This document shows positions 2,417 to 59,682 of a stretch of 64,000 bases of DNA, piece by piece. The stretch is from a virus: IMG/VR virus record IMGVR_UViG_3300032236_001645, positions 15,751-79,750 of that record, one strand, 5' to 3'. The position numbers and the translations under genes are program-made. The notes beneath the pieces were generated by a model that was not told the DNA's origin, did no database searches, and saw only the letters and a list, made by a program, of their open reading frames with translations. Each line of letters starts with the position of its first letter. The stretch's first letter is position 1.

Positions 2417-5400
2417 TTAACAATGTGCTATTAGTGTAAATAATCCATTTGAATCAAATGTACCATAGTTTGTTTTATCTGACCACCTTGCAGCGGCAGG
2501 ACCTGTGAACGGTGTCACACCATCAGATTGATAATAGTTTTTACCGTTTATTAATGTATTCACTCCAAGATATGCATAAACTACACTGTATGCAGTTGGG
2601 TTATTACTACATGCAATTGTACTTGTAGAACCACCTTGAATTGTGAAGCTGGTTAAAGGACATACTATTTGATATTCTATTGTTTGTGCTGTACAACCAT
2701 TACTATCAATTACATATAACCAATAGTAACCACAACTTAATCCTGTTACTGTTACATAGTTATTACTAGCAAGGTTACTAGTTACACCTGTTGTGAATAC
2801 TTGATTATCAGTTGGGTAATCATTATATGGTGTTGCATTATCCTTATACAACTTCATAGTTCTTGTACCTGAACCACCAGAACATGTAATTCTTAATGAA
2901 CCATTTCCACCCGCACCTGTTTCGTTAACAACTTGATCTATGTAACCATATAATGCGTCAGGTGATGTAATTGTTTGTGAGTATGATTGAACACAACCTG
3001 AACTATCTTTAATATAGATTGTGTAATTACCCATAGATAAACTACTAAATGTCTTAGGTAAAGCATAGTAAGTTGAATTATCTGTAGATGCACTATATCC
3101 TGAACCTGAACCACCTGAACCACCACTTACTGCGATACTACCATTATTACTTGTAGCACAAGTTATATTTGTAACTGATATTGTTGCATTTGGTGCTGTT
3201 ACCGCAAATGTAGTTGAAGAAGATGTTGCAGTACAACCATTACTATCTTTAACTGTAACACTATAAGTACCATTACCTAAACCTGTAAATGAATTACTTG
3301 ATTGGTATGTTCCACCATTTAATGAATATGTATAACCACCAGTTCCGCCACCCGCAGTTGCTGTAACACTACCATTAGTACCGTTATAACATGTAGGTGC
3401 CGTTCCTGAAATTGAACTTGTAACCTGTGTTCTTGCAAGGTTTCCAACTGAAACTGACACAACAGTTCCATTTCTACCACTATTTCTTACATAACCTGTA
3501 TATGTTCCACCTGCTAATGAACTGAACGTTGCACTTGACTGCCAGTTTACATTATCTTTAGAATATTCATATGCCGCACCATTACCACCACTTGCACTTA
3601 ATGTAAATGCTGCAGTTGTATCACCATAACATGTTTGTATTGTTGAACTTGCTACTGACAATGATAATGCAGGTAACGAAGGTGTTTGTGTCTGTGTTGC
3701 CGTTTGTGACGGTGTAATATTTGGTGTTGGTGTTTGAGTCGTTGTTTGAGTTGGGGTAGGTGTTTGTGTAACACAAGGAGTACATAAACCATTTAATGTT
3801 GCGGTAGTTCCTGATACCGATTTTGTTGCACTTCTATAACTTCCGTTTAGAGCAATATAAAAATTACCAATTGGTACTGTTACAATATTTGTTGAAGATA
3901 TTGACGTCGCATCACATAAACTAATGCCACCCGTTAAAGTTACTTTACCTAATTGTATACCATTATAACAAGCACTGTACGCATCTGCACCCCAAGTATA
4001 TGGAGGTTGTGTTGGTGTCGGCGTTTGTGTCATAGTTGGTGTAACACTTGGTGTTTGAGTTTGTGTTGGCGTTTGAGTTTGCGTACCCGTTTGAGTTTGA
4101 GTTTGAGTTGGTGTAATAGTATTTGTTGGTGTTACTGTTTGTGTTTGAGTTGGTGTAATAGTATTTGTTGGTGTTACTGATGGTGTTGATGTAACAGTTT
4201 GTGTGATAGTTGTGGTTGGTGTAATAGTATTTGTTGGCGTAACAGTATTTGTTGGTGTTACTGTTTGAGTCGGAGTTTGAGTTTGAGTTGCAGTCACCGA
4301 TGGAGTAATTGTATTTGTTGGTGTAACTGTTTGTGTTGGCGTTGGACTTGGAGCTAACACGCTTACATTGATTCCAAAGAAACACTGGATTGTTGGGGTT
4401 GGTGTTTGTGTTGTGGTAGGAGTTACTGTAGTAGTTGGTGTAATTGTATTCGTAGGTGTAACTGTTGGTGTAACAGTCTTTGTCGGTGTTTGCGTTTGTG
4501 TTGATGTTGGCGTTTGGGTAGTTGTTGGTGTGATAGTGTTTGTAGCGGTAATTGTTTGTGTAATAGTTGTGGTAGGTGTAATAGTATTTGTTGGTGTAAC
4601 AGTATTTGTTGGTGTTTGTGTATTTGTAGGTGTAATAGTATTTGTTGGTGTAACTGATGGAGTTATAGTGTTTGTTGCTGTAACTGTTTGTGTTGGTGTT
4701 GGGCTTGGTGCCAATACAGATACGTTGATTCCGAAGAAACATTGGATCGTAGGAGTAGGTGTTTGCGTTGTTGTCGGTGTAACCGTTGTTGTAGGTGTAA
4801 CTGTTTGAGTTGGTGTTACAGTAGGTGTACTTGTTCTTGTTTGTGTATTTGTTGGTGTAACTGTTGTCGTTGGTGTAACAGTTTGTGTAATAGTTGTTGT
4901 AGGTGTAATAGTATTTGTTGGCGTTATTGTATTTGTAGGCGTTTGAGTAGTTGTTGGTGTAATAGTCTGTGTCGCTGTTACTGATGGAGTAATTGTATTT
5001 GTTGGAGTAATAGTTTGTGTTGGAGTTGGTGATGGGGCAAGTACCGAAACGTTTATACCAAAGAAACATTGAATTGTTGGAGTTGGTGTTTGCGTCGTTG
5101 TTGGTGTAACGGTAGTCGTAGGTGTTATAGTATTTGTTGGTGTAACAGTTGGTGTAATTGTGGTAGTAGGTGTGATTGTATTTGTCGGAGTAACGCTTGG
5201 TGTTGACGTATTTGTTGCAGTAATTGTTTGTGTTGGAGTAATAGTAGTTGTTGGTGTAATAGTTTGTGTTGCTGTTACTGATGGTGTAATAGTATTTGTT
5301 GGGGTTATAGTTTGAGTTGGTGTCGGACTTGGAGCAAGTACTGAAACATTAATACCAAAGAAGCACTGTATAGTCGGAGTCGGCGTTTGTGTCGTAGTAG

Positions 5401-8400
5401 GTGTAACAGTTGTAGTTGGTGTAATAGTATTTGTTGGGGTGACAGTTGGCGTATGAGTCGTAGTTGGTGTAACCGTTGTTGTAGGTGTAACTGTTTGTGT
5501 TGGTGTCACAGTTGTAGTTGGCGTAACAGTACTTGTTGGTGTAATTGTTTGTGATGCTGTTACTGATGGTGTAATAGTATTTGTTGGCGTAACCGTATTT
5601 GTTGGCGTAGGTGATGGTGCGAGAACAGAAACATTTATTCCAAAGAAACACTGAATTGTTGGTGTTGGCGTTTGTGTTGCAGTTGAAGTAACCGTGGTTG
5701 TCGGTGTGATAGTTGTAGTTGGAGTAACAGTCTGTGTATGTGTTGTAGTAGGTGTAACCGTAGTTGTTGGTGTTACAGTTTGGGTGGAAGTTACTGTTGT
5801 TGTTGGGGTAACTGTTGTAGTTGGAGTAATAGTGTTCGTTGGAGTTACAGTTGGGGTAACTGTGGTTGTCGGTGTAATAGTTGTAGTTGGAGTAGGGCTT
5901 GGTGCCAACACACTCACATTGATTCCGAAGAAACATTGGATAGTAGGTGTTGGTGTTTGCGTGGTAGTTGGTGTAACAGTCGTTGTTGGTGTAATTGTAT
6001 ATGTTGGGGTTACAGTAGGTGTAATAGTATTTGTTGGTGTAACCGTATTTGTTGGTGTAGGTGAAGGTGCCAATACGCTTACATCTATACCAAAGAAACA
6101 CTGTATGGTTGGTGTAGGTGTTTGGGTAGTCGTTGGTGTAACAGTTGTAGTTGGTGTAATTGTTGTTGTCGGTGTAACTGTTTGTGTTTGAGTTGTAGTT
6201 GGCGTAACTGTTTGTGTTTGAGTAACAGTTGGTGTTTGAGTTGGAGTTTCTGTGTTTGATGGTGTAACAGTTTGGGTAGGTGTTGGTGAAGGTGCAAGAA
6301 CAGATACATTGATTCCGAAGAAACATTGGATTGTAGGTGTAGGTGTTTGCGTCGTTGTTGGAGTAACGGTAGTGGTTGGTGTAATAGTAGTAGTAGGAGT
6401 AACTGTAGTAGTTGGTGTAACTGTTGGGGTTACTGTTGGTGTTAAAGTTGTAGTTGGAGTTTGTGTAGGTGTTTCCGTATTTGATGGTGTTATCGTTTGC
6501 GTTGGTGTAGGGCTTGGAGCTAGTACACTTACATCTATACCAAAGTAACACTGAATAGTCGGAGTTGGCGTTTGTGTGGTAGTTGGCGTAACGGTAGTAG
6601 TTGGTGTAATAGTAGTGGTTGGAGTAACTGTTGGAGTTTGTGTAACAGTCGGCGTTTGAGTTGGTGTCTCCGTATTTGAAGGTGTAATAGTTTGTGTTGG
6701 AGTAGGTGATGGGGCAAGTACTGATACGTCAATACCAAAGAAACATTGAATTGTTGGTGTTGGCGTTTGAGTCGTGGTAGTTGTTGGTGTTATTGTATTC
6801 GTAGGCGTCACAGTTGGGGTAACCGGTGGTGTGGATGTTACTGTTTGAGTCGGAGTTGGTGACGGAGCAAGAACCGATACATTTATACCAAAGAAACATT
6901 GAATTGTTGGTGTTGGTGTCTGTGTTGCAGTTGTAGTTGGTGTAATAGTTGTAGTAGGTGTTACACTTGGAGTAACCGGTGGAGTGGATGTTGTGGTTGT
7001 TGTAGGTGTTGGTGATGGTGCAAGTACTGATACGTCAATACCAAAATAACATTGAACTGTTGGTGTTGGCGTTTGAGTTGAAGTTACTGTTGGTGTAATC
7101 GTAGTAGTAGGTGTTACCGTAGGTGTTGGTGGCATAGTACTAGTGACAGTTGGCGTTGGAGTTGAAGTAGGTGCCAATACACTTACATTGATTCCGAAGA
7201 AGCATTGAATTGTAGGTGTAGGTGTTTGAGTAGCGGTAGGAGATGGTGTTGGTGGCATAGTACCGGTAACAGTAGGTGTTGGGGTAGTTGTTGGTGCCAA
7301 AACACTTACATCAATACCAAAGAAACATTGAATTGTTGGAGTTGGTGTCTGTGTAGTGGTTGATGTAACACTAGGGGTTACTGTTGTTGTTGATGTAACA
7401 CTCGGAGTAACTGTTTGTGTATTTGTATTTGTTGGTGTATTTGTATTTGTTGGTGTAACAGTCGTTGTTGGTGTAACTGTGGGTGTTTCAGTCGGATTTG
7501 GAGTACCTGTATTAGTTGATGTAACACTTGGAGTAATTGTATTGGTAGGTGTTAAAGTTGGTGTTGATGTATTTGTTACCGTAGCAGTTTGAGTTGTAGT
7601 TGGCGTTTGTGTAACAGTTGGAGTGATAGTTGTAGTTGCTGTAACTGTTTGTGTCAGTGTTTGAGTTTGCGTATTAGTAGGTGTAACTGTTGTTGTTGAT
7701 GTAACAGTTGGTGTTTGTGTAAGAGTTTGGGTAGGTGTTACTGTAGCAGTAACTGTATTTGTTGGTGTTACAGTTGTGGTAGAAGTTGGTGTTTGTGTTG
7801 GTGGTAATGTTTGTGTTGGTGTGGTAGTTGGTGTTTGAGATATAACAAAAACATCATCAATATCATCATACCATATAATTTCATAAGAATTACCAGATGC
7901 TGCAGGTGTTGGTAAATTAAATGTAAATGACTCATTTAAATAATCAACTACATTTCCACCATAAGGTATTAATCTTGTGGTGTTGTTATATTTTGTATCA
8001 ATAAGTGAACCATTTTTCCATAATTCAACTCTAGTTGTATGTACATAAACAGAATATAAATTATCATTATGATACATTATTCTTTGTGCACTTATTGTTG
8101 TTTGTCCAACACACACATCACTATTAACATAGTCTGATGTAAAATACCATGGTGCTGGTGGTTCATTACTATCATTTGTAACTAAATCTGAAAGTAATGC
8201 CGATGGACACGTAGAGTCCAAATATGATTTAACAGTTGGTACATAAACATTAATACCACCAGATTTTACATTATTAAGTTGTTCATATGTAATCTTAACT
8301 TCAAGTGAAGTTTTAGTTGTTGTAGGTGTAACTGTAGCGGTAACAGTTGGTGTTGGTGTATATGATGCGGTATTTGATGGTGTTAAAGGTATATACGTTG

Positions 8401-41469: not shown

Positions 41470-41958
41470 TTAGTATACTAAGATACATCTATCAGGTCTC
41501 AAAGAACAAGTGATAGTTGCTAACGCATCGTTGTTGTAGTCTAATTCTTGGAAGTCAAGGTTAGTTAAGAAAGTACCTTGTAAAATCCATTTTTCAACAA
41601 CCACACCTGTCGGATCTAACATTTCTAATTCAATATCTTTTTTGTAACCAGCAGCATATCCCATACGTCCTGTAACTGATTCTGCATGTAAACGGAACCA
41701 TTCCATTAAAGCTTGAGAAGCTGAAGGACCGATTGGATCTTTGAATGTTACTCTAATCTCTTCCCATTCAAATCTACCAGCAACATATGTTGAAGTGTTT
41801 AAAAACGGAATAGGCACTGAATTGATTTTAGCAGCGGGTCTTTTAGTTGAAGTCACATACCATTCATTTATACCCAAAGTTGATGGGAATCTTAAGATGA
41901 ATCGGTTGACTCTTTTCGGTTCGTAAGGAACCGGCATTTTCATTAGTAAATCTGCCAT
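41470..41958 (-). CDS. Tail tube protein, T4 gp19-like
   Basis: EPKRVNRFIL, YVAGRFEWEEI.VTF.DPI, YKKDIEL.MLDPTG.VVEKW.L.G. Confidence 0.92.
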   Translation of the reverse strand: MADLLMKMPVPYEPKRVNRFILRFPSTLGINEWYVTSTKRPAAKINSVPIPFLNTSTYVAGRFEWEEIRVTFKDPIGPSASQALMEWFRLHAESVTGRMGYAAGYKKDIELEMLDPTGVVVEKWILQGTFLTNLDFQELDYNNDALATITCSLRPDRCILVY

Positions 41959-42087
41959 GTTGTATTTGTTAAGTTTTTTAAGTTATTTACTTTCTTATAA
42001 ATATATCAGTATTGGAAAATAATTTTTTTAAAAATTTTTATTCGGAATACTTGATAATGTCAAATATTTTTCGTAGTTTTTTACAGG

Positions 42088-42183
42088 CTCCAGTATCTAG
42101 TTCCAGAATAAATCACTAATATAAAATATCTAGTTAATAAATATATTAAAACTAGTTCTAGAATATACTAGATAATACTGGGC
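42088..42183. repeat. Cluster of CTAG/CCAG/CTGG boxes in AT-rich intergenic DNA (putative origin or protein-binding array)
   Basis: CTAG at 42097, 42130, 42152, 42158, 42168; CCAG at 42090, 42103; CTGG at 42178; flanked by imperfect inverted CCAGTATCTAG / CTAGATAATACTGG. Confidence 0.55.
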
Positions 42184-42207: not shown

Positions 42208-42223
42208 TGTTCCACGTGGAACG
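42208..42223. promoter_or_regulatory. parS: parS-like centromere palindrome TGTTCCACGTGGAACG
   Basis: Perfect 14-bp palindrome GTTCCACGTGGAAC, close to the bacterial parS consensus TGTTNCACGTGAAACA; intergenic. Confidence 0.7.
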
Positions 42224-42232
42224 TTCTACAAT

Positions 42233-42264
42233 AAAAAAAGGAAGGTATCACTTACCCTCCTTTT
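42233..42264 (-). terminator. Intrinsic terminator after the tail sheath gene
   Basis: Minus strand AAAAGGAGGGTA-AGTGA-TACCTTCCTTTT plus T run. Confidence 0.7.
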
Positions 42265-42287
42265 CCTTTTTTATATCTCCTTTTAGA

Positions 42288-44717
42288 TTAGATATTTTCA
42301 AATGAAGCTCCTGTTGGAGTAATTACGAACTCTAAGTCAATGAATTCCAAAGAACGAGTTGGTTTGATGTATATCTTACCTCTTAATGTGTTTGCGTCAA
42401 TATCCTCAGGATCACTTGAAACACTTACACGGAAGTCATATAAACCTCTTTCTTTCTTAATTGCTTCTAAAATAGGGTTTACCAATCTTAAGAATTCTTG
42501 TCTTACCTGATCGTCATTTTGTTCAAACAACAATCTAACAGCAACCGCAGAAATCAATTTTCTCGCTCTTAACAATAATCTTCTTACGTTGATTCTGTCC
42601 AAAGCGGATTCTCTAACTTGTAATGTTTTATTACCCCAAATGATAGTACCTGTATCAGAGAATGTAGCGATTGGGTTAATTCTATTTTTGTATAAAGTAT
42701 CTCTTTCGTCTAAAGTTAATTTCTTTTGAGCTTTGATAGCGTTTACCAATCCTCTTGAATAACCCGCAACTGCGAACCAAGGATAAGATACGTTGTCAGT
42801 CAAAGCAATATTTCTACAAACCTCACCTGTTGGTGGGATATATAATTGAGTTGCATTATCGGTATCTCTAATTTGAATCCAAGGCCAATATGTTGCTGAG
42901 TAGTTAGAATCAATACCTTGATCTTCTAAGTCACCAACAATTGATGTCATATCTGTTTCATTTGGAGCACCAATAATATATATTGAATCCGCTCTATCAT
43001 TTTCTATAATGTCAATTGCTTGAGTTGTTAAAGAACTATGATCGTAGAAATTAATACCTGGTGTGGCAAATACGTTGATATCTACCGCTTCAGGGTTTGA
43101 ATATGTGTTAATACCATCTAAGTAAGCGTAATAATCTGAGTTACCTTCACTTGTATTAAATAAACCACCATTGTTAGTATTACCTGAAATATATGTAGTT
43201 TTTCCAAATATATAACTATCACCATAAGTTCTTACAGTTCTATAGATGTCCCAACCATCAAAACCACCACATGCTGCAAATGTAAACTTACGATAGTTAA
43301 TATCTAACATTTTATTTGTACTTGAATCACCACTTTGTCCTTCTAAATCATAATTTGTTGTTTGATAAGTTGTACCGGTAATTGTTGATGCATTTGTCGA
43401 TAAATGGAAACCGTAAGTTGTTCCTAAAGAACCCGCACCTTTATATTTAAACAAATCACTATCGTATAAGAAATCTGATTGAGTAGAAAGTCCTAAAGTA
43501 TTTTTTCTATAAGAATCTCCGTTACTTGTAGTTGTACCATAAATTACATCTCCTGAATTAAAGAATGAAGTTTTATATAAAACACTACCTAATGTAGTTG
43601 AACCTGATAATGAAGAATTTGTAAATCCTTTAAAACCAGCGGGAAAAGCATCTGAAGGTGCATTTGAATCCATATTCAACATTATATATTTTGAATTTAA
43701 ACTATATTCACCATCTGAAGTACCGATTTTTCTTGCAACATAACCAGCAACATCTGGATTCATAGAACATCTTGAAAATTTCTCTAAAACTGACATATTA
43801 TCATCAGTATCATTAAAATCTCTAACTAAAACATCAAATTCACCTGTGTTTATATTAATATTTTGAATTGTAATTTTTACTTGTTCATTTGATGCATCTC
43901 CATCGGATATTGTAATTATTTGGAATAAATCAGAAACCTTACCACCTCTTACTTCTGAAACAACCATTGGTGAAGCTGCGGTGTCCCATCCGTTTGCGAA
44001 GTTATTACCTTCAGCATTATATACCTCAGTAAGACTTAAACCAGATATAAGTTGTTGATTATAAAGATTTTTTACCAAATTTGGATACACTTCATGTACA
44101 TATAATGGAATATCTGTACCGTCTTTATCATAAGGACTTGTACCTAAAACTTTTGTAATGTATTTTGGTGATGTTGAATCTAAACTACATGTAAATGTTT
44201 TTGCACCATGAGTTAATCCTGTTACGTGAATATCAAATTCAGATAGAGGATTTGTAGTTAAAGTATTACCACTAAGAATAAATGCCGAGTTAGATGTAAC
44301 TTCAAAAACTATAGTTTCACCTGAATAGTGTCCTCTAGATCTCAAAGCCGCCACAACTACGTTGTTATATTCATCACTTCCGATAGTTTTGATACCGAAT
44401 GTTTTACCTGCTTTATATCCTGTTTTACCCAAAATTCTTGTTACAAATAATTGATTAGATTCTTGAAGATATGATTTTGCAACATAAGGTAATTCATATT
44501 TTGGATTATTATTAGCATCTTTTTCAGGAGATGTTCCACCAAAATATGTTTTAAAATCTGTAAAATTTGAAATTAATATTGGTTCAAAAGCAGGACCTTT
44601 TAATGTCTCACCTACTAAACCTAATGTTGTAACACCTACACTTTGTGCTACAAATGTTAAATCTACCTCAGAAGTGTAAACACCTGGAGATACGAATACT
44701 CTGTTTGAATTTGCCAT
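42288..44717 (-). CDS. Tail sheath protein, T4 gp18-like
   Basis: FVSPGVYTSE.D, GETLKGP, PWFAVAGYSRG, LYKNRINPI, WGNKTLQ...LDRINVRRL, PTRSLEFI. Confidence 0.96.
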   Translation of the reverse strand: MANSNRVFVSPGVYTSEVDLTFVAQSVGVTTLGLVGETLKGPAFEPILISNFTDFKTYFGGTSPEKDANNNPKYELPYVAKSYLQESNQLFVTRILGKTGYKAGKTFGIKTIGSDEYNNVVVAALRSRGHYSGETIVFEVTSNSAFILSGNTLTTNPLSEFDIHVTGLTHGAKTFTCSLDSTSPKYITKVLGTSPYDKDGTDIPLYVHEVYPNLVKNLYNQQLISGLSLTEVYNAEGNNFANGWDTAASPMVVSEVRGGKVSDLFQIITISDGDASNEQVKITIQNININTGEFDVLVRDFNDTDDNMSVLEKFSRCSMNPDVAGYVARKIGTSDGEYSLNSKYIMLNMDSNAPSDAFPAGFKGFTNSSLSGSTTLGSVLYKTSFFNSGDVIYGTTTSNGDSYRKNTLGLSTQSDFLYDSDLFKYKGAGSLGTTYGFHLSTNASTITGTTYQTTNYDLEGQSGDSSTNKMLDINYRKFTFAACGGFDGWDIYRTVRTYGDSYIFGKTTYISGNTNNGGLFNTSEGNSDYYAYLDGINTYSNPEAVDINVFATPGINFYDHSSLTTQAIDIIENDRADSIYIIGAPNETDMTSIVGDLEDQGIDSNYSATYWPWIQIRDTDNATQLYIPPTGEVCRNIALTDNVSYPWFAVAGYSRGLVNAIKAQKKLTLDERDTLYKNRINPIATFSDTGTIIWGNKTLQVRESALDRINVRRLLLRARKLISAVAVRLLFEQNDDQVRQEFLRLVNPILEAIKKERGLYDFRVSVSSDPEDIDANTLRGKIYIKPTRSLEFIDLEFVITPTGASFENI

Positions 44718-44832: not shown

Positions 44833-44991
44833 ATGGAAAACAAACAGAAAAATGTCAAAATAAGCGAAAAACATCACGAAATGTTAAAAAATTATTGTGA
44901 TAAAAATGGTTTAAAAATCTATAAAGTTTTAGAAAAACACATAGAAGAACTTTGTAAACCTAAAAAAAAGGATATATATGGTGACGATTAG
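44833..44991 (+). CDS. Ribbon-helix-helix-like DNA-binding protein (52 aa), not in ORF track
   Basis: MENKQKNVKISEKHHEMLKNYCDKNGLKIYKVLEKHIEELCKPKKKDIYGDD: alternating beta strand, helix, G turn, helix. Confidence 0.7.
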   Translation: MENKQKNVKISEKHHEMLKNYCDKNGLKIYKVLEKHIEELCKPKKKDIYGDD

Positions 44992-59192: not shown

Positions 59193-59682
59193 AGAATTAA
59201 AACATAGGATTTTTGATATACCTCAAGATATATTAAACAGTATAAATCACACAGTTAGTGGGTTATATGGTGTTCATGCTAGAGGTATTCAAAGAGCCCA
59301 AAAACTTTTACAGGATAAAAAAGTAAAATATGGACAATTAAAAAGAATTATCCATGATTTACAAAATACTGATCCGATGAAAGATAAAGTAAAATATGAT
59401 CTAGCCGGTGGTAATTTGATGTTAAAATGGGGTAAACAATTTTTAGATGGTGAGAGAGAATTAATATTAAATAAAAAACAAGGTAGGAAAGATGCGGATG
59501 AAATGTCAGGTATAACAGGAGAAAGAAAAAATAGTTTTTTAAAGAAACATTCAAAAAAACCTGATTTTTTACCGGCACTTAATATGATGAAAAGTAATTC
59601 TCATAAAACATCGGTATCAAATTTGGGTATAGGAAAATTATTTGAAGAAATAAATAAGATTAAGAAACTAATTATATATTAA
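59185..59682 (+). CDS. Hypothetical basic protein (165 aa)
   Basis: Overlapping start; ends LFEEINKIKKLIIY. Confidence 0.6.
   Translation: MNKELKHRIFDIPQDILNSINHTVSGLYGVHARGIQRAQKLLQDKKVKYGQLKRIIHDLQNTDPMKDKVKYDLAGGNLMLKWGKQFLDGERELILNKKQGRKDADEMSGITGERKNSFLKKHSKKPDFLPALNMMKSNSHKTSVSNLGIGKLFEEINKIKKLIIY

Follow-up and report, generated by a model that had tools for sequence, protein, structure and literature searches.

A conserved, single-copy parS-type palindrome upstream of the tail tube gene in T4-like jumbo phages: a candidate site for host ParB

Genomic setting of the palindrome

The stretch of viral DNA analysed here (the window) comprises 64,000 nucleotides of an IMG/VR source record of 79,750 bp, to which CheckV assigns a completeness of 26%. 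The genes around the palindrome all lie on the minus strand. Read in that direction, the order of features is sheath gene, two-way terminator, GTAGAAC heptamer, palindrome, AT-rich spacer, box array, conserved block, late promoter and tube gene (Table 1). The gap between sheath and tube genes measures 329 bp, and the palindrome TGTTCCACGTGGAACG sits within it between the sheath terminator and the tube gene, GC-rich in surroundings that are AT-rich. Its core GTTCCACGTGGAAC (42209-42222) is a perfect palindrome of 14 bp, as an earlier note made from the sequence of this DNA had described. The heptamer that abuts it is degenerate in the window, and the same position holds a perfect GTGGAAC in relatives.

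Table 1. Features of the sheath-tube region, in window coordinates and in the order in which they are met on the minus strand.
Feature	Position	Strand	Remarks
Tail sheath gene, upstream neighbour	42288..44717	-	Pfam sheath domains
Two-way intrinsic terminator after sheath gene	42233..42273	.	stem-loop 42240-42260, A-run on one side, T-run on the other
Degenerate third heptamer	42223..42229	.	GTTCTAC (plus), GTAGAAC in gene orientation; touches palindrome
parS-type palindrome TGTTCCACGTGGAACG	42208..42223	.	core equals Bacteroidota chromosomal parS; position kept in relatives
CCAG/CTAG/CTGG box array	42097..42182	-	long imperfect inverted repeat around AT-rich centre
Most conserved non-coding block	42049..42085	+	TTG (42051-42053), 20 nt, TAGTTTTT (42074-42081)
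Tube-gene late promoter ATATATTTATAAG	41994..42006	-	36 nt before ATG
Tail tube gene, gp19-like, downstream neighbour	41470..41958	-	

The late-promoter motif of the tube gene recurs 36 nt before the sheath ATG and ahead of many open reading frames in G005, a complete relative of 310,542 bp (a circular assembly with a 99-nt overlap). Across the clade the late promoter takes the form ATATTTAT(A/T) and stands 12-50 nt ahead of start codons. The conserved block looks like a Bacteroidota-type promoter aimed at the box array and the palindrome. Its TTG-N20-TAGTTTTT resembles the 26 early promoters (TTG-N19-21-TAnnTTTG) that precede short open reading frames on the minus strand of G005 (236-262 kb), save for the last base, which is T here and G in 23 of the 26. 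The block is kept even in clades that have neither the palindrome nor the CTAG boxes. It also contains a palindrome of its own, of 5-3-5 type (TTGAY-N3-RTCAA). The tetramer CTAG is about 5-fold under-represented in G005 (176 seen versus 849 expected), and seven of these 176 copies fall within 150 bp in the spacer (G005 59204-59400), the densest CTAG cluster of the genome. Small open reading frames in the spacer showed no conservation. GC skew gave no sign of an origin, merely tracking the direction of transcription, and genes for DNA polymerase and helicase are found 5-10 kb from the palindrome.

Two further observations concern the neighbourhood of the sheath gene. The first 15-20 nt past its stop codon (TCTAAAAGGAGATAT; 42266-42287, minus strand) are almost invariant in relatives though non-coding. 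Divergent from the sheath gene lies an open reading frame of 52 aa (44833-44991, plus strand) that matches repressor families of the Arc-like ribbon-helix-helix type (E ~1e-4). Across about 200 related loci, sister clades included, it shows 69-98% identity, which exceeds the conservation of the sheath protein, and its N-terminal strand KNVKISEKHHEMLK is nearly invariant.

Copy number and conservation across relatives

The sequence TGTTNCACGTGNAAC has one exact match in the window and one in the whole record. The palindrome is also single-copy in relatives of 128-287 kb and in the complete G005, so that the genome-wide scan proposed in the earlier note finds one site per genome over a range of 128-310 kb. 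Half-parS sequences are neither avoided nor enriched genome-wide in G005 (26 seen, 20-27 expected), and their excess in the window stems from repetitive coding sequence. Three plus-strand copies of a 15-mer, TGTTGTAGGTGTAAC, are present in the window (4787-4801, 5477-5491 and 8318-8332), probably as repetitive coding sequence too.

Relatives were collected with the sheath protein as query, which returned 597 related IMG/VR stretches, 80 of which were kept; further relatives came from a scan with the conserved block, and sister clades from a distant sheath query. The sheath-tube gap spans 297-343 bp in nearly all relatives, and in 101 distinct sequence contexts (204 locus hits) the palindrome occupies the same place in it, at a distance of 10-20 nt past the terminator. 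On the tube-gene tree its arm positions underwent 0-2 changes each, against 13-20 at flanking positions; third codon positions averaged 5.75 changes on a better-resolved tree of 42 taxa. The recurrence of the same site in the same place in 101 contexts, together with the few changes in its arms, argues that the palindrome is more than a chance occurrence, and the substitution pattern indicates that it is under strong purifying selection. The earlier suggestion of a cis-acting element that gene annotation misses is borne out in this respect, since the element is conserved between genes in related phages.

Insertions in the gap of L020, L052, L056 and L124 (0.9-2.2 kb) fall between the terminator and the palindrome. 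Since they split the two, the palindrome is part of the module upstream of the tube gene and not of the terminator. The inserted genes (in these four and in L044) abut the left edge of the palindrome's position, are mostly antisense and have their own late promoters. The L044 insert holds a 517-aa open reading frame resembling a homing endonuclease, and L044 is without the palindrome.

These data bear directly on the notion that the palindrome is an inert relic, whether captured host DNA, a chance palindrome or a mere part of the sheath terminator. Its GC-rich composition in AT-rich DNA and its position next to the terminator would suit such an origin. However, the arms have hardly changed where the flanks have changed many times, the position is kept throughout the 101 contexts, and insertions separate the palindrome from the terminator. 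Furthermore, neither strand has a T-run after the palindrome, as would be expected of an intrinsic terminator. We consider an inert relic highly improbable.

Some lineages no longer have the site (L091, L044). In sister clades the gap (about 300 bp), the conserved block and the late promoter are all present, with repeats of TTAGTA type replacing the CTAG boxes, and no parS-like palindrome was found in those with the homologous spacer. The palindrome is therefore a clade-specific addition, sitting at the far edge of a repeat-and-promoter module that is itself older. In the nearest cultured phage, which infects Flavobacterium, only 45 nt separate the sheath gene from the next gene, and the module is thus absent there.

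Match to bacterial parS and the likely host

The palindrome agrees with chromosomal parS TGTTNCACGTGNAACA, the CC/GG variant, at 15 of 16 positions and over all 14 positions of the core; the sites of L038, L070 and G005 match it at 16 of 16. The perfect 16-mer TGTTCCACGTGGAACA is found clustered, with 2-5 copies per 8 kb, in bacteria of many phyla, among them Bacteroidales, Chitinophagaceae, Flavobacterium, Algibacter and Daejeonella. In five Bacteroidota genomes with one ParB each, GTTNCACGTGNAAC is clustered 2-5 times, with no control matches. These Bacteroidota sites are mostly of the CC/GG form seen in the window, and the core GTTCCACGTGGAAC is their main clustered parS. The resemblance to the bacterial consensus, which the earlier note had called close, is exact. 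The exact 16-mer of the window also occurs 12 times among 110 imperfect bacterial sites adjoining perfect ones (secondary parS).

The host is most likely a member of the Bacteroidota, judging from the early promoters of the TTG-N19-21-TAnnTTTG type and from the Flavobacterium host of the nearest cultured phage.

Variation of the site and tolerance of ParB

The exact core is kept in only 15 of the 101 contexts. The commonest form is GCTCCACGTGGAAC; variant centres include CACATG, CATGTG, CACGAG, CACAAG, CACGCG and CACGGG, and further variants show a GTAGAAC right arm, the paired change GTTTC..GAAAC or a one-nucleotide insertion in the right arm. The earlier note had held that degeneration of the site in close relatives would tell against ParB. 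In sequence the site is partly degenerate, with a CACGAG centre already in the nearest relative (L002) and the exact core restricted as above, and in position it is retained throughout the 101 contexts. Variation is highest at central positions 7-10, and the central four are near-neutral. Avoidance of a restriction site was rejected as the cause of this central decay, given that CACGTG occurs 29 times where about 20 are expected and so is not avoided.

In the left arm G1 and A6 never or almost never change, and it is these bases that set parS apart from the Noc site (PMC7383237). In the phages, position 3 of the 16-mer changes from T to C and position 10 is free, whereas each varies in about 1 of the 110 bacterial secondary sites; bacterial sites hardly vary at these two positions or at position 11, all of which vary in the phages. 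The right-arm counterpart of the invariant A6 has changed seven times, to A, C or G, compared with 1 of 110 bacterial secondary sites, and GTAGAAC, a form that violates a strict ParB position, evolved several times.

ChIP-seq showed that Pseudomonas aeruginosa ParB binds single parS arms in vivo, with half-parS positions 1, 3, 5 and 6 strict and positions 2, 4 and 7 free (PMC5961200). By this tolerance list, which is that of Pseudomonas and not of Bacteroidota, at least one ParB-competent half is present in 99 of the 101 variants: both arms are competent in 56, one in 43 and none in two. The one-armed contexts divide into 32 with the left arm only, seven with a good left arm and an insertion in the right, and four with the right arm only. 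In roughly 40% of contexts, one arm is broken at ParB-critical bases, and this is nearly always the same arm. Extra perfect parS half-sites lie beside the site in 14 of the 101 contexts, compared with about three expected; they include GTGGAAC at -7, GTTCCAC in L052 and the T-type halves GTTTCAC in L079 and GTGAAAC in L521.

Duplex DNA or hairpin

Transitions confined to one arm distinguish a palindrome read in duplex DNA from one that folds on a single strand. They go both ways: wobble pairing is preserved by GCTCC..GGAAC on the plus strand only, and by GTTCC..GGAGC (L170), GTTCT..GGAAC and GTTTC..GGAAC (L518, L521) on the minus strand only, so that it fits neither strand. This argues that each arm is read on its own and not as one side of a single-stranded stem. 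Since the changes fail to preserve pairing consistently on one strand, the palindrome is probably read as double-stranded DNA and not as an RNA hairpin. Note that our test of wobble direction seemed at first to point to a plus-strand hairpin; the signal was weaker on a better tree and was contradicted by further variants.

The alternative is a stem of 5 bp with a 4-nt loop acting in single-stranded nucleic acid, either an antisense plus-strand RNA that would run from the promoter-like block to the two-way terminator, or single-stranded DNA. Variation concentrated in the centre and double changes that keep complementarity (GTTTC..GAAAC, GTTCT..AGAAC) are what a hairpin would produce, but A6 is invariant although it would belong to the loop. 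On either strand, the region folds better than shuffled versions of it, yet RNAalifold applied to 27 spacers returned no consensus structure, a scan of the spacer against Rfam gave sub-threshold matches only, and fold z-scores of the long inverted repeat were modest overall, weak in several lineages and lacking in others. The arm changes are without exception transitions, the variants with a one-nucleotide insertion can still fold with a bulge, and in L020 the inserted antisense gene begins 5 nt past the palindrome. In contrast, the inserted genes of L052 and L056 bear late promoters of their own, and the final T of the block departs from the usual G of early promoters. On this balance we judge the hairpin improbable.

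Absence of phage partition proteins

The earlier note had reported no parA or parB in the window, and this holds well beyond it: the record, four large relatives and the complete 310-kb G005 yielded no ParB_N, HTH_ParB or ParA-type ATPase (AAA_31) domain when searched. With no ParA or ParB on the same replicon, the locus differs from a self-contained ParABS cassette of P1 or N15 type. G005 encodes a 273-aa tyrosine recombinase (187797-188246; Phage_integrase domain, E 5e-36) that was not found in three other large, incomplete relatives. One relative record, G001, is classed as a provirus by IMG/VR.

Candidate readers of the palindrome

Taken together, conservation, copy number and pattern of change indicate that the palindrome is a single-copy site in double-stranded DNA for a protein whose sequence specificity resembles that of chromosomal ParB. 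Host ParB is the single most likely reader, followed by another protein of the module and then by a hairpin. We tentatively propose the palindrome as a candidate loading site for host ParB, a reading that we place somewhat short of probable. It is favoured by the identity of the core with Bacteroidota parS combined with a fitting host type, by strong selection on a single copy whose variation stays within the tolerance of ParB, by the extra half-sites and independent arms, and by the precedent of phage phi29 (see below).

The main argument against host ParB is the asymmetry between left and right arms, which a symmetric dimer does not predict. The scarcity of the exact core, the recurrence of GTAGAAC, the losses and the absence from sister clades also weigh against it, as does the presence of just one site per genome. 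To our knowledge, there is no known benefit of a host parS to a lytic T4-like phage, which we likewise counted against this reading. In addition, some 250,000 windows were scanned overall, and a single chance look-alike is plausible at that scale. The earlier proposal that the phage recruits host ParB is thus supported by an exact parS match, a conserved cis element and the lack of phage parA/parB, and is weakened by a core that is exact in few contexts. Recruitment of SMC, titration of ParB and persistence as an episome, which the earlier note also raised, are speculative.

The asymmetry, together with the near-neutral central four, is better accommodated by an asymmetric complex. A different dimeric DNA-binding protein, of phage or host, might use the palindrome as an operator within the tube-upstream module, as part of a regulatory switch or a T4-style origin, its likeness to parS being coincidental. 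Gene insertions leave the palindrome attached to the downstream module, and this module is single-copy, holds the densest CTAG cluster and carries a conserved block like the early promoters. Sister clades keep a spacer of similar length and the same block with other short repeats, and the replication genes are not far off, although GC skew gives no sign of an origin. However, an operator of this kind requires an exact coincidence with host parS at 14 of 14 positions, the left half has a tolerance profile like that of ParB, and the extra copies are T-type parS half-sites. The boxes of the module vary independently of the arms, with GAAC invariant in the arms and variable in the boxes. No candidate protein was found, and the DNA-reading strand of the Arc-like neighbour does not change between clades whose repeats differ. 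We regard an unrelated operator as rather unlikely.

Three more specific candidates were rejected. A sigma-54 or class II activator site lacks the -12 GC, and the distance from the palindrome to the next box varies (7-40 nt). An inverted pair of the module's own boxes does not fit, because the boxes keep CTRG instead of GAAC and do not co-change with the arms. The Arc-like protein as reader was set aside because clades that have the palindrome and clades that lack it share the same DNA-reading strand in this protein.

Under the ParB reading, a dimer of the Bacteroidota host's own ParB would nucleate on the phage genome at the palindrome, the phage supplying only the site and the host supplying ParB. 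Provided that neither arm is broken, ParB would probably go on to close as a CTP clamp that slides over the adjoining tail-gene DNA. The window site, which equals the host-type core, should bind ParB in vitro. We infer ParB as the reader and, likewise, what the phage might gain from it: partition of the genome in a dormant or carrier state, loading of SMC on 310-kb units, or control exerted locally on the non-coding module next to the site. A broader possibility, which we hold to be rather unlikely, is that hundreds of T4-like jumbo phages of Bacteroidota from lake water make use of host ParB on their own genomes of 310 kb, and by way of ParB also of ParA or SMC, which might partition a dormant or carrier-state genome or organise concatemers for packaging. 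If so, the phi29/Spo0J strategy would extend to non-sporulating Gram-negative hosts. If host ParB does load, virulent phages of non-sporulating bacteria would plug into the chromosome-organising machinery of the host, a point relevant to the persistence of virulent phages in natural populations that grow slowly, and to the organisation of very large phage genomes. Whether or not ParB reads the palindrome, the single-copy non-coding module of about 260 bp upstream of the tube gene is a strongly conserved control region absent from annotation, which may serve in regulation, as an origin or in packaging.

Comparison with known systems

Despite the identical core, the phage site differs from chromosomal parS in its setting: chromosomal sites form clusters of 2-5 in genomes that encode ParB, and the phage site is solitary and without phage ParA/ParB. 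The module also invites comparison with origins of phage T4. The T4 origins oriF and oriG consist of a promoter and a downstream unwinding element. As in these origins, the promoter-like block of the phages studied here is directed into a single-copy non-coding stretch that is AT-rich, bears repeats and belongs to a late-gene region; unlike them, the region shows no skew signal, and the palindrome has no counterpart in T4 origins.

The arms of the phage sites fall within the forms GTTCCAC, GTTTCAC, GCTCCAC and GTTCCAT, like the half-parS of P. aeruginosa, and many lineages have one good arm. The P. aeruginosa half-sites, however, number hundreds per genome and show no obvious ParB spreading (PMC5961200), whereas the phages have one site at one conserved position.

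The closest parallel is the virulent Bacillus phage phi29, in which host Spo0J/ParB binds five parS sites of the host type (Meijer et al. 2005, as described in PMC2731898). Host Spo0J was reported to help move the phi29 genome into the prespore (PMC2731898). As far as that account goes, the two cases share a host-type parS on a phage that has no lysogeny module and no parB of its own, with a host partition protein as the proposed reader. They differ in scale, with five sites in a 19-kb genome in phi29 and one site in about 310 kb in the T4-like jumbo phages, many relatives of which carry only a half-site. The benefit described for phi29 is a genome trapped in the spore, whereas the likely hosts here are non-sporulating Bacteroidota. 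Within the literature searched, and going by the description of phi29 in that source, a phage-borne host parS is documented only for phi29, where it serves spore entrapment; no description of a parS-type site in T4-like, jumbo or Bacteroidota phages was found there. A canonical parS, TGTTTCACGTGAAACA, is present in at least 119 IMG/VR viral contigs (L339-L418), and among those listed some have clusters of 3-5 copies and many have a single copy.
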